Shown piece after piece: positions 1,414 to 29,351 of a stretch of DNA of 29,351 nucleotides; positions within the stretch are counted from its first letter, which is position 1; every line of letters starts with the position of its first letter. Origin of the DNA: a virus. The notes below the pieces were generated by a model. That model did no database searches and was not told the DNA's origin. It was given only the letters and a program-made list of their open reading frames with translations. The stretch lies in the UHGV virus genome UHGV-0299584. The stretch is one strand, 5' to 3'. The position numbers were made by a program, and so were the translations under genes.

Positions 1414-1632
1414 CGGCAGTACAGCGAAACAACCCAAGCCAGAAAGTGGGGAAATAACACTGGCAGCCACTGAAAGATGAACCTCCTGCCTTATGGCAAA
1501 AAAGATTCTTTGTGGTGGCGGACTGATGGAAAGACATCGGATAGAATAAAACAGTGGCTAGGGTAGCTCCCGAAAAGCGGAATCGTCACCGCCAGCCACT
1601 GAATCTATGACGAACAACTAGACGAGGTTGTG

Positions 1633-1848
1633 ATGGATGATAACGGAAACCAATGGATCAATGTTGAACACCGGCTACCAGAAAGCAAAGAAGGGATGTG
1701 GTCTAAAGAGGTTATAGCTCTTACTGATACTGGTGACGTGTTCAAACTATCATGTATGGGCTCTTACTGGCAGAGAACCAAGGCATTCATCGATTCAGGA
1801 GCAAGCAAGGTTACACACTGGATGCCGCTTAATTACCCAGATGATTAA
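1633..1848 (+). CDS. Small DUF551-like protein
   Basis: GAGG RBS 6 nt upstream of ATG 1633. Motifs WINVEHRLPE and VTHWMPLNYP are shared with the C-terminal domain of the 336-aa early-left protein (WISCSERMPD, VTHWREMPAAP). Confidence 0.55.
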   Translation: MDDNGNQWINVEHRLPESKEGMWSKEVIALTDTGDVFKLSCMGSYWQRTKAFIDSGASKVTHWMPLNYPDD

Positions 1849-1866
1849 AACGGATGAAAAATGAAA

Positions 1867-1888
1867 GGTCGCTCAGGCGGCCTTTTTT
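1867..1888 (+). terminator. Intrinsic terminator
   Basis: GGTCGC-tcag-GCGGCC hairpin (6 bp, one G.U) followed by TTTTTT. Confidence 0.55.
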
Positions 1889-1995
1889 ATTGCCATCACA
1901 AAAGCCATTCCCTACAGAGTGGCTTTGATAATGGCTTATACCCTACACGGGATAACTTAACTGATATCCCTTTTAACGGATAAACGGAGCCAACA

Positions 1996-2238
1996 ATGGC
2001 AGAGATTATTCCCATGACTGAAGAACAGAAATTCCAGTTAGAGATTTACAAGCTGGTCATGAACCAGAACGCAGCCGCAGAAGAAGCATTTCAATTCATT
2101 GGCACTGACGAACTGAAGCTTGAGCTATTCAAAATTCACTTCCAGTCAGGTGGCGCTAATTCAGATATCACGACCCGCACTATCGAAGCGGTGCGTAAAT
2201 CGAAGGAAGCGTTAGACCTGTTCACTACCGGAGCATGA
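1996..2238 (+). CDS. Hypothetical small protein (80 aa) upstream of terminase
   Basis: ATG with GGAG RBS at 1986-1989; no recognisable motif. Confidence 0.5.
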   Translation: MAEIIPMTEEQKFQLEIYKLVMNQNAAAEEAFQFIGTDELKLELFKIHFQSGGANSDITTRTIEAVRKSKEALDLFTTGA

Positions 2239-26673: not shown

Positions 26674-26699
26674 CAAAAATAAAGGCCGACTATGCGGCC
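26674..26699 (-). terminator. Putative intrinsic terminator after the 207-aa gene
   Basis: - strand reads GGCCG-catagt-CGGCC followed by TTTATTTTTGG; the gene's stop codon lies in the loop. Confidence 0.45.
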
Positions 26700-27313
26700 T
26701 CGGAAGGAAGTCCAATCATCTTATTCAAATCTTCTACCCGTAAAGCAGGAAGTGCTGTACTTGCTTTATCTGCTTCTTTTGGTAGCAACTCTTTGCTTTC
26801 AGGCCAAACTTCAATAAGTCGCTTAACTGTTGTGACTGAGTTCAAAGCAGCCCATACATTTGATTCGATATCCTTTTTCTTGGCTTCAAGTTTTTGTTGC
26901 AATGCGCAGATTTCATCAAACCTTTTTGTTATTTCGTGTTCTGCGTCAAACATGCATTTATCTTTTTCTGGGGTGGGGAGCAATATATCTTCACCGTTGC
27001 CGTCTTTTCCGTATGAATGCCAGCCAACTCTTCTGCCAGATACAGTCAGATAAATTGAAGCAAAACGAACATCGCATGAGTAAAATGAACATCCCAGTTT
27101 TTCAAGTTCTTCACTTATAGCTACTAACTTGGATGATAACTGATCCACTTCCTCAGTTTTCTTTTTACCGCCAAACGCAATAACTCTGGCGTCAAGTGCA
27201 AGCTGGTTCTTTAACTTTATTACTTCTTCAAGTTCAGTGAAAACCCCAGACTTAATTAAAGCGTTACGAGCGATTTCCTCTTTCATTCTCGTAGTTAAGC
27301 GGATTGATGACAT
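26690..27313 (-). CDS. Unrecognised 207-aa protein, AT-rich, between N and cIII
   Basis: ATG 27313 with GAGAGGAA RBS, 11 nt after the N stop. No transmembrane segment or motif I recognise. Visibly lower GC than flanking genes (not computed). Confidence 0.6.
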   Translation of the reverse strand: MSSIRLTTRMKEEIARNALIKSGVFTELEEVIKLKNQLALDARVIAFGGKKKTEEVDQLSSKLVAISEELEKLGCSFYSCDVRFASIYLTVSGRRVGWHSYGKDGNGEDILLPTPEKDKCMFDAEHEITKRFDEICALQQKLEAKKKDIESNVWAALNSVTTVKRLIEVWPESKELLPKEADKASTALPALRVEDLNKMIGLPSEAA

Positions 27314-27324
27314 ATTAATTCCTC

Positions 27325-27624
27325 TCAAATAAGTGGTTTGCTGCCTAATTTCATTTTCTGGCGACCAACACAAGTCACACCTATTTCACTGCGTGGCTTG
27401 CTGTAGTAAATACGGTTCTGTTTACGCTCGACTTCTTCTGCCTTCTTGCAGCGAAGGCTTCCGAGTGATGCTGCTTTATCTGCTCTGACGCAACCAGAGA
27501 GCTTTAGCGAAATTTTTCGCGCCAGTCGCTGCTCTTGCATTGCCTGTTCACGTTGAGCCTGTCTGCGTGCTCTGCGGCGATTTCTGGCGTTATCGTCAGC
27601 CAGATATGTAATGACTACTGTCAT
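27325..27624 (-). CDS. N: N-family transcription antiterminator
   Basis: 99-aa product with an N-terminal arginine-rich motif (NARNRRRARRQAQREQ). C-terminus NRIYYSKPRSEIGVTCVGRQKMKLGSKPLI matches lambda N (RTWYSKPGERGITCSGRQKIKGKSIPLI) as recalled. GGAGG RBS. Confidence 0.8.
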   Translation of the reverse strand: MTVVITYLADDNARNRRRARRQAQREQAMQEQRLARKISLKLSGCVRADKAASLGSLRCKKAEEVERKQNRIYYSKPRSEIGVTCVGRQKMKLGSKPLI

Positions 27625-27937
27625 GTTGACCTCCGATGAAACAACTTTGGAATTTTTTTATTACAAAGTGGTTTCCTTCCCCGCCAATTAGACGGGGATG
27701 GAAGAGCATTTATGAGCCTTCATGGACTCTGCTCGATCAGTTCTATTTAATTAATCTCTCAATTGAATGTAAGTATTCACATAAATCCTCCTACCTCTTG
27801 TGCAGCTTTCTTGAATATGGTGGCGGCTGCATAACGCCTATGGAATTGACTTTGGCGGTGACGCGCCGGGTGCTTATCTTCCGGTTGCCGTCGTGCAGCT
27901 GCACTTCACGTCACCCCAAAGCCAACTACTCTTTGGT

Positions 27938-27978
27938 TCCCGCATTTCGGCGGGACAATCCCATCAATGTTAAAGAGC
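27938..27978 (-). promoter_or_regulatory. nutL: boxA (GCTCTTTAACA) plus boxB hairpin (TCCCGCCGAAATGCGGGA) on the pL transcript
   Basis: - strand reads GGCTCTTTAACA, 12-nt spacer, TCCCGCCGAAATGCGGGA; the same 18-nt boxB recurs in nutR at 29094-29111. Confidence 0.65.
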
Positions 27979-28025
27979 CTGCCAATCTGTTCCGTTTGGC
28001 TACCAGCGTCCTGCTGATGGCTTAA

Positions 28026-28110
28026 ATTTAAGATCTCTTTAATTAATGGTCAAGGGGATTTTTGAAGAAAACTTAAATTTTCTTTCGTAACTTAAGTTTA
28101 GCTTTGATTT
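28026..28110 (-). promoter_or_regulatory. OL / pL operator-promoter region
   Basis: ATTTAAGATCTCTTTAAT at 28026-28043 has the same ATTTAAG-N4-CTTTAAT architecture as OR1; further ACTTAA-containing repeats follow. Confidence 0.5.
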
Positions 28111-28121
28111 TTAAAGGAAAT

Positions 28122-28142
28122 AAAAAAAGGGGCGAATGCCCC
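28122..28142 (-). terminator. Intrinsic terminator immediately downstream of cI
   Basis: - strand reads GGGGC-attc-GCCCC followed by TTTTTTT, 2 nt past the cI stop. Confidence 0.6.
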
Positions 28143-28144
28143 CC

Positions 28145-28795
28145 TTATGGAAGGTTTGCTAGTTTTGCATCGACAACTACGCCGATGATTTTGCAGTTTC
28201 CGTTGATCTCGATCATCGGATATTGTGGGTTAAGTGGTTTTAGAAACTTCCTGCCTGCATCAATAACTAACTTCTTGAAAGTTGCCTCGTTTTCTCCTTC
28301 GAGCTTTGCAACTACAAGTTTCCCGTTACGCGGCTCTACTTCAGGATCGACGAGTATTATCATTCCTTCAGGGATACTGAGACCGGCCGGAGCCGTCATT
28401 GAGTCTCCCTTCACGTCCAACCAAAACGAATCTTCTGAACAGTCTACGGTTGTATCGTACCAGTTATCTATTGCACGCTTATGATATGGTTCTACAGCTT
28501 CCATCCAGCATCCTGCGCTCACCCAGCTAATCAGAGGGTATGACCCTCTTGGATCATGCCTACTGTGATAGGCAATGTTTGAAAGACTTTCCTCTCCTTT
28601 CATCAGATAGTCAGGGGAACACTTCAACGCATTAGCCAGGGCGAGAAGATTCTCTCCATTTGGCTCTGTCTCAGAGCGTTCCCACTGAGATATGGCAACA
28701 TTAGACACGCCGACCATCTTTCCAAGTGCGGCCTGCCTGATCTTGAGTTCTTTTCTCCGAGCGCGAATGCGCTCTCCCATCAATTGAGTTTTCAT
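28145..28795 (-). CDS. cI: CI-type repressor (P22 c2-like), LexA-like S24 autocleavage domain
   Basis: 216-aa product MKTQLMGERIRARRKELKIRQAALGKMVGVSNVAISQWERSE... matches the P22 c2 repressor as recalled; has the helix-turn-helix, the Ser (GDSM) and the Lys (NGKLVVAKL) of the S24 dyad. Confidence 0.93.
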   Translation of the reverse strand: MKTQLMGERIRARRKELKIRQAALGKMVGVSNVAISQWERSETEPNGENLLALANALKCSPDYLMKGEESLSNIAYHSRHDPRGSYPLISWVSAGCWMEAVEPYHKRAIDNWYDTTVDCSEDSFWLDVKGDSMTAPAGLSIPEGMIILVDPEVEPRNGKLVVAKLEGENEATFKKLVIDAGRKFLKPLNPQYPMIEINGNCKIIGVVVDAKLANLP

Positions 28796-28797
28796 AG

Positions 28798-28861
28798 TTA
28801 AGACATCTTAAATAAACTTGACTTAAGATTCCTTTAGTGGATAATTTAAGTGTTCTTTAAT
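28798..28861. promoter_or_regulatory. OR operator region (three P22-type operators) with divergent pRM/pR
   Basis: TTAAGACATCTTAA at 28798-28811; ACTTAAGATTCCTTTAGT around 28821-28838; ATTTAAGTGTTCTTTAAT at 28844-28861. Lies between the divergent cI and cro starts. Confidence 0.7.
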
Positions 28862-28875
28862 TTCGGAGCGAGTCT

Positions 28876-29061
28876 ATGTACAAGAAAGATGTTATCGACC
28901 ACTTCGGAACCCAGCGTGCTGTAGCTAAAGCGTTAGGCATTAGCGACGCAGCAGTCTCTCAGTGGAAGGAAGTCATCCCAGAGAAAGACGCCTATCGACT
29001 GGAAGTCGTTACAGCTGGCGCCCTGAAGTATCAAGAAAGCGCTTACCGCAAAGCGGCATAA
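28876..29061 (+). CDS. cro: Cro repressor (P22 Cro-like)
   Basis: 61-aa product MYKKDVIDHFGTQRAVAKALGISDAAVSQWKEVIPEKDAYRLEVVTAGALKYQESAYRKAA matches P22 Cro as recalled; GGAG RBS. Confidence 0.9.
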   Translation: MYKKDVIDHFGTQRAVAKALGISDAAVSQWKEVIPEKDAYRLEVVTAGALKYQESAYRKAA

Positions 29062-29067
29062 GCAAAT

Positions 29068-29111
29068 TGCTCTTTAACAGTCATGGTCCTCATTCCCGCC
29101 GAAATGCGGGA
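29068..29111 (+). promoter_or_regulatory. nutR: boxA (TGCTCTTTAACA) plus boxB hairpin
   Basis: boxA at 29068-29079 and boxB TCCCGCCGAAATGCGGGA at 29094-29111, identical to the nutL boxB. Confidence 0.65.
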
Positions 29112-29169
29112 ATACAACGCGCATAAGTTGATGCGCATAACTTCTTATTTGTTAAGGAAATACTTACAT

Positions 29170-29351
29170 ATGGTTCGTGCAAACAAACGCAACGAGGCTC
29201 TACGAATCGAGAGTGCGTTGCTTAACAAAATCGCAATGCTTGGAACTGAGAAGACAGCGGAAGCTGTGGGCGTTGATAAGTCGCAGATCAGCAGGTGGAA
29301 GAGGGACTGGATTCCAAAGTTCTCAATGCTGCTTGCTGTTCTTGAATGGGG
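29170..29351 (+). CDS. cII: CII-type transcriptional activator, 5' part (runs off the window end)
   Basis: ATG 29170 with AAGGA RBS; translation MVRANKRNEALRIESALLNKIAMLGTEKTAEAVGVDKSQISRWKRDWIPKFSMLLAVLEW matches lambda CII as recalled. Absent from the ORF track because no stop falls within the window. Confidence 0.8.
   Translation, partial: MVRANKRNEALRIESALLNKIAMLGTEKTAEAVGVDKSQISRWKRDWIPKFSMLLAVLEW

Follow-up and report, generated by a model that had tools for sequence, protein, structure and literature searches.

Mosaicism is textbook knowledge for lambdoid phages. In lambda N, RNA polymerase is bound by the C-terminal region, and the extruded loop base of lambda boxB has been proposed as the feature that NusA or the arginine-rich motif (ARM) of N reads. 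The loop of lambda boxB is a GNRNA pentaloop (PMC12027372), the P22 loop GACAA adopts a GNRA fold whose looped-out C makes contact with one His and one Arg residue of the peptide (PDB 1A4T; PMC12550061), and in the CUAACC hexaloop of phage 21 a C-C pair flanks UAAC, which has a GNRA-like fold (PDB 1NYB; PMC12550061). Joint change of the N ARM and boxB has long been part of the field's reasoning, as in phage epsilon34, where a divergent N-terminus on a conserved N was taken as a new boxB specificity (PMC2629481).

Nut sites of the reference phages were taken from their own genomes. Lambda boxB reads GCCCTGAAGAAGGGC at nutL and GCCCTGAAAAAGGGC at nutR, and the same boxB is found at nutR of Sf6 and Sf101; P22 boxB reads GCGCTGACAAAGCGC at nutL and CCGCCGACAACGCGG at nutR; HK97, which has an H-19B-type N with the ARM RSRRRER (PMC3526286), carries GCGCTGACAAAGCGC at nutL; and phage 21 and mEp235 have a boxB with the hexaloop CTAACC at nutL and nutR, as does mEpX1 at nutL only. 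The HK620 record (AF335538) annotates a 'putative nutL' and a 'putative nutR', the coliphage 21 record (OL657228) annotates boxA-L, nutL, boxA-R and nutR, and the record of CUS-3 (CP000711), a P22-like prophage of E. coli K1 RS218, leaves its nut sites unannotated and labels the leader only 'boundary sequence bsq5'.

We analysed a 29,351-nt stretch of the virus genome UHGV-0299584 (hereafter the window), the left 25 kb of which carries P22-like virion genes including portal, terminase, coat and tailspike. The region at its right end very probably serves a temperate E. coli phage of P22-like (CUS-3/HK620-like) type as its early antitermination module, with an ARM and boxB of an HK620-type fourth class.

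Two identical boxB hairpins at nutL and nutR

The 18-mer TCCCGCCGAAATGCGGGA has exactly two copies in the 29.4-kb window, one on the minus strand (27938-27955) and one on the plus strand (29094-29111), with no third copy in the window even at up to three mismatches; two matches were obtained in 0 of 100 shuffles. Both copies are preceded, in the transcribed orientation, by the same boxA-like sequence, GCTCTTTAACA; the first belongs to the pL transcript and the second to the pR transcript. At nutL, boxA (27968..27978, minus strand) is separated from boxB by a 12-nt spacer (27956-27967), and the site lies between N and a pL-like promoter (TTGACC-17-TAAATT; 28053-28025, minus strand) that was found by consensus scan and is homologous to the OL/pL region of phage 21. 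At nutR, boxA (29069..29079, plus strand) is followed by a 14-nt spacer (29080-29093), and the site lies between the cro stop (29061) and cII (29170). The boxA, (G/T)GCTCTTTA, is close to the consensus CGCUCUU(U)A, with a first base other than C, and is the same sequence as the annotated boxA-L and boxA-R of phage 21.

As RNA, both copies are predicted to fold into UCCCGC-CGAAAU-GCGGGA, a 6-bp stem with the loop CGAAAU at -9.7 kcal/mol, compared with -3.5 +/- 2.2 for shuffled sequences, and the nutR stem can be extended to 8 bp (29092-29113). The initial annotation had reported the same 18-nt hairpin after a boxA-like element in both nut sites and had proposed folding as a check; when this was run, the hairpin appeared in the minimum-energy fold of every context tried (18, 66, 131 and 409 nt). 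The z-scores of the 66-nt nut contexts are -1.4 and -0.3 and are not significant alone, so the case for the hairpin rests on its exact repetition, its position and its conservation. The pair is the nutL and nutR boxB of an ordinary lambdoid N antitermination system.

Intrinsic terminators were considered for the two hairpins and ruled out, as neither has a U-run after it and a terminator scan calls neither. An Rfam scan matched no nut family and returned only a chance-level match (RefA1, E = 0.63). A second hairpin, GCGCAU-AAGUUG-AUGCGC (29119..29136, plus strand), is predicted from folding directly 3' of nutR at the position of the tR1 region, a role it may have by analogy with HK620, where tR1 is annotated directly after nutR.

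The window hairpin matches none of the lambda, P22, HK97 and phage 21 boxBs, confirming from the phage genomes the earlier statement that it is neither lambda's nor P22's. A search for an exact match to a known class yielded no experimentally characterised one; it did yield the annotation of HK620, in which boxA, spacer and boxB of both putative nut sites are base-for-base identical to those of the window. On this comparison of sequences, the N/nut combination is not new.

Mosaic structure of N and the immunity region

N is the first gene of the leftward operon (27325..27624, minus strand), identified as an open reading frame with homology to known N proteins; it encodes a small basic protein of 99 aa with an N-terminal ARM. 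The ARM codons (residues 11-32, DNARNRRRARRQAQREQAMQEQ; 27529..27594, minus strand) align without gaps to the lambda, P22 and phage 21 ARMs, and A13, R16, R20 and R21 (window numbering) are invariant across the four classes. Taken whole, the protein is 96% identical to CUS-3 N and 70% identical to phage 21 N (E = 2e-48), and it scores weakly, under the cut-off, against Pfam N_peptide (18.3 vs 27.9 bits). Its residues 1-64 equal those of HK620 N with two substitutions, the ARM being identical; over residues 33-99 its identity to phage 21 N is about 97%; and lambda N, as present in the 6GOV antitermination complex, is matched by the C-terminal residues 62-99 (E = 5e-5). By these alignments N is a three-part mosaic, HK620-like over residues 1-64, phage 21-like over 33-99 and with a tail homologous to the C-terminal region of lambda N.

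The initial annotation had described N as chimeric, with a P22-like N-terminus and a lambda-like C-terminus. Its chimeric nature stands, with HK620 and phage 21 rather than P22 and lambda as the parents found by alignment. P22 gp24 resembles it only in MTV(V)ITY, at an overall identity of 25% (E = 0.006), and at the C-terminus there is a genuine, though remote, resemblance to lambda N.

The genes around the hairpin pair form a standard lambdoid immunity region. The cI repressor (28145..28795, minus strand) has 216 aa, with HTH and S24 peptidase domains in Pfam, and is of imm21/P22-C2 type; a pR-like promoter (TTGACT-16-GATAAT; 28818..28845, plus strand) was found by consensus scan inside OR; cro (28876..29061, plus strand) encodes 61 aa of the P22_Cro family (PF14549, E = 9e-28); and the 5' part of cII (29170..29351, plus strand) continues past the window end. 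The region is of imm21 type, a close relative of P22 immC, as judged from cI, cro and the operator sequences. Identities to phage 21 and P22 are 97.2% (to the 216-aa cI ORF) and 92.1% (to C2) for cI, 96.7% and 95.1% for cro, and 80/81 and 78/81 for OR, so that by sequence the nearest relative of cI, cro and OR is coliphage 21, with P22 next. The earlier description of cI and cro as P22-like is thus right as to family although not as to closest relative, and that of cII as lambda-like is borne out by 60/60 identity to lambda cII.

The closest match over this region is CUS-3, with 99% DNA identity over 27324-29351. Its N type, nut sites, leader insertion and cI/cro/cII arrangement are all as in the window, and its N differs at four amino acids. 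HK620 shares the nut sites and, but for two substitutions, N residues 1-64. Its N has 90 aa and a P22/H-19B-type C-terminus (...CLPNVAIYAAGYRKSKQLTAR) where that of the window is of phage 21/lambda type, and it has another repressor (238 aa), a P22-c1-type cII and no leader insertion. This insertion, 222 nt of the N leader that phage 21 and HK620 lack (27629..27850, minus strand), was seen as an alignment gap against phage 21, has no convincing ORF inside, and is found among phage records only in CUS-3 (99.5%) and HK140 (73.5%).

The immunity part of coliphage 21 is about 87% identical to that of the window, its boxA and the upstream flank of boxA are the same, and the layout of a hexaloop on a 6-bp stem is shared. 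The two differ in the ARM (AKSRYKARRAELIAERR in phage 21 vs ARNRRRARRQAQREQAM in the window, with the ARM region about 35% identical) and in boxB, where the phage 21 loop is CUAACC vs CGAAAU and the stems are unrelated, so the window falls outside the phage 21 class. With lambda it has in common the architecture and gene order, the RRRxRR core of the ARM, the C-terminal homology (6GOV) and the identical cII. Lambda differs in a boxB (GCCCU-GAARA-AGGGC) that is closed by a U-A pair and extrudes its fourth base, in the ARM residue Trp18, which is Ala in the window, and in a shorter boxA-boxB spacer (about 7-8 nt vs 12-14 nt); the window does not carry the lambda combination of a GAARA pentaloop closed by U-A with Trp18.

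The nutR boxB of P22, CCGC-C-GACAA-C-GCGG, has the stem and the mismatch-flanked design of the window hairpin, the first N residues (MTVITY) are similar, and the register of the ARM is the same; the P22 loop is a GACAA pentaloop with a looped-out C vs GAAA in the window, and its ARM, AKTRRHERRRKLAIER, differs. Neither P22 (GACAA pentaloop; ARM AKTRRHERRRK) nor H-19B/HK97 (ARM RSRRRER, P22-type boxB and a structured spacer) provides a class into which the window fits. H-19B was considered separately on account of the annotation of HK620 N as H-19B-like, and was ruled out by the ARM RSRRRER and the P22-type boxB at HK97 nutL; the H-19B likeness of HK620 N lies in its C-terminus.

Co-variation of the ARM with boxB

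Compared with phage 21, the DNA of the window is about 99% identical over 27330-27509 (the C-terminal part of N), about 50% identical over 27510-27628 (the ARM codons), matches at 13/30 positions over 27925-27954 (boxB-L) between flanks of about 80%, and is mostly 75-100% identical over 27955-29093 (operators, cI, cro and boxA-R); from 29094 onward (boxB-R and beyond) homology stops. The two diverge only in the ARM codons, in boxB-L, from boxB-R onward and in the leader insertion.

A wider comparison covered 320 viral loci from IMG/VR in four samples of 80, for which the N of the window, phage 21, lambda and P22 served as seeds. Both boxBs were predicted by the ARM class: a table of ARM class against boxB class was strictly diagonal, with 0 off-diagonal loci, while the C-terminal tails of N were found shuffled between the ARM classes. 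The window carries the ARM NARNRRRARRQAQREQ together with the boxB UCCCGC-CGAAAU-GCGGGA at both nut sites, the combination that defines the HK620-type class, and among loci with this type of ARM the hairpin is present in 94/96 nutL and 90/96 nutR sites, the remainder being sites in which it was not found. In the loci seeded with the window N, the 18-nt boxB and the 11-nt boxA show 0 deviations across 37 distinct nutL and 23 distinct nutR contexts, in which spacers and flanks vary. The proposal that the N motif and boxB co-vary is supported by the diagonal table and by the three islands of divergence from phage 21, with the qualification that the sampled loci are mostly related E. coli prophages and the counts represent non-independent events. 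Shared ancestry of the loci means that linkage by descent accounts for part of the perfect co-variation and of the invariance.

From these comparisons the ARM/boxB pair would represent a fourth natural class of the lambda N family, apart from lambda, P22/H-19B and phage 21. We infer boxB binding, Nus dependence, antitermination activity and a separate specificity, and posit the following mechanism, modelled by homology. The pL and pR transcripts would each carry a nut site composed of boxA GCUCUUUAACA, a spacer of 12-14 nt and the boxB hairpin. In N, the product of the first gene of the leftward operon, the arginine-rich helix near the N-terminus (about residues 11-32, NARNRRRARRQAQREQ...) would bind boxB, the central residues 33-64, common to the N proteins of phage 21 and HK620, would recruit NusA, and the lambda/21-type C-terminus (residues 62-99) would engage RNA polymerase, which would then pass downstream terminators.

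The loop, read as C-GAAA-U, combines the hexaloop layout of phage 21 (C-NNNN-Y) with the genuine GNRA tetraloop GAAA inside a C·U mismatch, where the counterpart in phage 21 is UAAC flanked by C·C. Seen from P22, the window hairpin is the nutR boxB minus the looped-out C, and the ARM position of the P22 His is Arg in the window N. This loop layout, with the replacement of the P22 His by Arg and of lambda Trp18 by Ala, would fit a recognition mode distinct from but related to those of the other classes. That it amounts to a natural fourth N/boxB specificity class, with a true C·U-flanked GNRA tetraloop and no looped-out base, is a tentative suggestion, which we regard as possible rather than probable. 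Were it true, and were the extruded loop base of the lambda and P22 boxBs read by NusA or the ARM, the antitermination complex of this class would have to assemble differently, and the pair would provide a fourth peptide/hairpin combination for RNA tethering, orthogonal to those of lambda, P22 and phage 21.

The alternative that survives best, although we consider it unlikely, accepts the nut sites as real and denies them a separate class, the GAAA-type boxB being interchangeable with that of P22, lambda or both and its difference being neutral drift within a shared recognition of GNRA folds. Cross-reactivity between the lambda and P22 ARMs and boxBs is documented and counts in favour of this, and lambda N binds a GAAA-tetraloop variant of boxB; N ARMs are known to be partly promiscuous, and we therefore offer the separate specificity of the HK620-type class as a proposal. 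In the same direction, stem and flanks of the hairpin are near-identical to those of the P22 nutR boxB, and all classes show a GNRA-like fold to a homologous ARM with the invariant register A-x-x-R-x-x-x-R-R (PMC12550061). Against interchangeability, none of the 320 loci (0/320) pairs the ARM of one class with the boxB of another, though the rest of N recombines freely, and the hairpin is invariant across 60 distinct contexts. Moreover, the P22 His that contacts the looped-out C (PMC12550061) is Arg in the window N and the C itself is absent, and the closing U-A pair and Trp18 of lambda are both missing.

The surroundings of the hairpins are modular. The identical boxB pair brackets 130 distinct inter-nut sequences, counted as distinct, oriented sequences since the boxB pair alone does not reveal orientation, and these fall into eight repressor clusters: imm21-like (54 distinct sequences, including the window), HK620-type (54), a 235-aa type (12) and five rarer clusters, one of which is lambda cI itself. 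The pairing of this boxB and N with a P22-type immunity region, to which the initial annotation had drawn attention, is accordingly present but is one of at least eight. The 5' edge of boxA-R and the position just past boxB-R are points at which homology to other phages breaks off, and this puts the nut sites at module junctions.

Both the bracketing of at least eight different immunity cassettes and these nearby breaks could be taken to mean that the hairpins are not N targets but terminators, sites for another factor or DNA inverted repeats serving as recombination joints of the immunity cassette, a reading we hold to be highly improbable given that each hairpin lies at the canonical distance 3' of a boxA in the transcribed orientation, that its presence tracks the ARM of N and not the immunity type, and that conserved nut sequences are known to give rise to mosaic junctions, which represent no alternative function.

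Occurrence and value of the pair

The module of ARM and boxB proposed here as HK620-type is real and is ordinary lambdoid biology, already annotated in HK620 and common in E. coli prophages. A segment comprising the ARM and nutL is present in about 29 deposited phage records, which include HK620, HK630, HK140, mEp213, mEpX2, ECP1, N7, JEP4, Gally, IME10, CUS-3 and some Stx1a- and Stx2c-converting phages. It has a match in 547 of 5426 complete E. coli genomes (about 10%).

Full-text literature searches for the hairpin sequence and for the ARM sequence returned no paper, and in the literature on HK620, CUS-3, nut and boxB, the HK620 genome paper excepted, we found no binding, structural, genetic or functional study of this class; a paper on co-transfer in lambdoid phages mentions neither nut nor N. 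The HK620-type ARM/boxB class with its plain GNRA tetraloop appears uncharacterised by experiment. It is routine as a genome feature, and its value is modest, lying in a pair that is this common, several Stx-converting phages included, yet for which no study was found. Whereas the loops of lambda, P22 and phage 21 only imitate a GNRA tetraloop, the boxB of this pair has the plain form itself; the pair therefore offers a natural control in studies of boxB reading by ARM helices and NusA, and is a candidate for a fourth orthogonal tether between peptide and RNA.

Among contigs from one genome per species, matches to the segment occurred only in an Escherichia sp. and in two short MAG contigs. 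The matches in E. coli include the 5' part of N, and the label that the NCBI pipeline places under them is mostly 'hypothetical protein'.

Structure of the N leader

The leader of N, the 99-aa antiterminator gene (27325-27624, minus strand), carries, between nutL and the N start codon, a 222-nt insertion (27629-27850, minus strand) that both HK620 and phage 21 lack. CUS-3 (99.5%) and HK140 (73.5%) were the only deposited phages found to share this insertion, and the CUS-3 record labels it solely as 'boundary sequence'. In addition, 154 of the 547 complete E. coli genomes matching the segment from the arginine-rich motif of N to nutL cover at least 80% of that segment, a coverage at which the insertion must be present. 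A search for a convincing open reading frame within 27629-27850 found none. A strong hairpin lies inside the insertion (~27670-27705), and the entire N leader folds into a much more stable structure than shuffled sequences (z = -4.5). A further long hairpin (~27846-27921, minus strand) directly follows boxB-L, and the leader of phage 21 contains a corresponding hairpin; its placement appears to resemble that of the structure that RNase III processes in the leader of lambda N.

Variation at boxB-R and the junction with cII

Among IMG/VR loci L212-L291, the boxB-R of the phage 21 class varies naturally and has the loop CTAACC in 48 loci and CTAACA in 12 loci, the latter with two stem lengths, in addition to a few further variants. 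The last loop position of this class tolerates change, whereas the HK620-type hairpin is invariant. In the window, homology to phage 21 stops at boxB-R, and the cII identical to that of lambda, together with lambda-like bases ahead of it (taaggaaatacttacat), starts approximately 20 nt ahead of the ATG at 29170. The mosaic junction occupies 29112-29169, between boxB-R and the cII start codon, and contains a hairpin (GCGCAU...AUGCGC, 29119-29136) between boxB-R and the lambda-like stretch.

Annotation of N, its neighbour and phage 21 cI

The match to the same segment takes in the 5' part of the window's N type, and in most of the matching complete E. coli genomes the label beneath it is 'hypothetical protein' (for example, NZ_CP009050.1, 2973522-2974017). 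The N of the window scores 18.3 bits against the Pfam model N_peptide, below the cut-off of 27.9. Adjoining N on its downstream side is a gene (26690-27313, minus strand) that encodes a full-length Nmad5 domain (nucleotide modification associated domain 5; Pfam PF18757, E = 1e-69), an unusual gene to find directly behind N in the early leftward operon. The cI of phage 21 (L001, OL657228) is annotated as 190 aa. Its start is probably placed too far downstream, because a 216-aa reading frame (1416-2066, minus strand) from an upstream ATG aligns over its full length with P22 C2 and the window's cI.

Unusual nut loci

In one IMG/VR locus boxB-R is broken after its eighth base (nutR context GCTCTTTAACAGTCATGGTCCTCATTCCCGCCG|TGAACCGCCCCGGGTTT) by what looks like the terminal part of an IS3-family element, and this prophage would be without a functional nutR. 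Other IMG/VR loci, including L080, carry lambda cI itself (MSAKKKPLTQEQLEDARRL...) between two HK620-type, non-lambda boxBs, with 2027 and 2864 nt between the nut sites. An additional reading frame in one such locus has an N-terminus apparently resembling that of an IS200/IS605-type transposase. The window's E. coli-phage nut site was also detected on short contigs of two non-enterobacterial MAGs, L453 (Bacillales, 5.6 kb) and L454 (Segatella copri, 4.2 kb), one of which has both nut sites; these are most likely mis-binned phage contigs.
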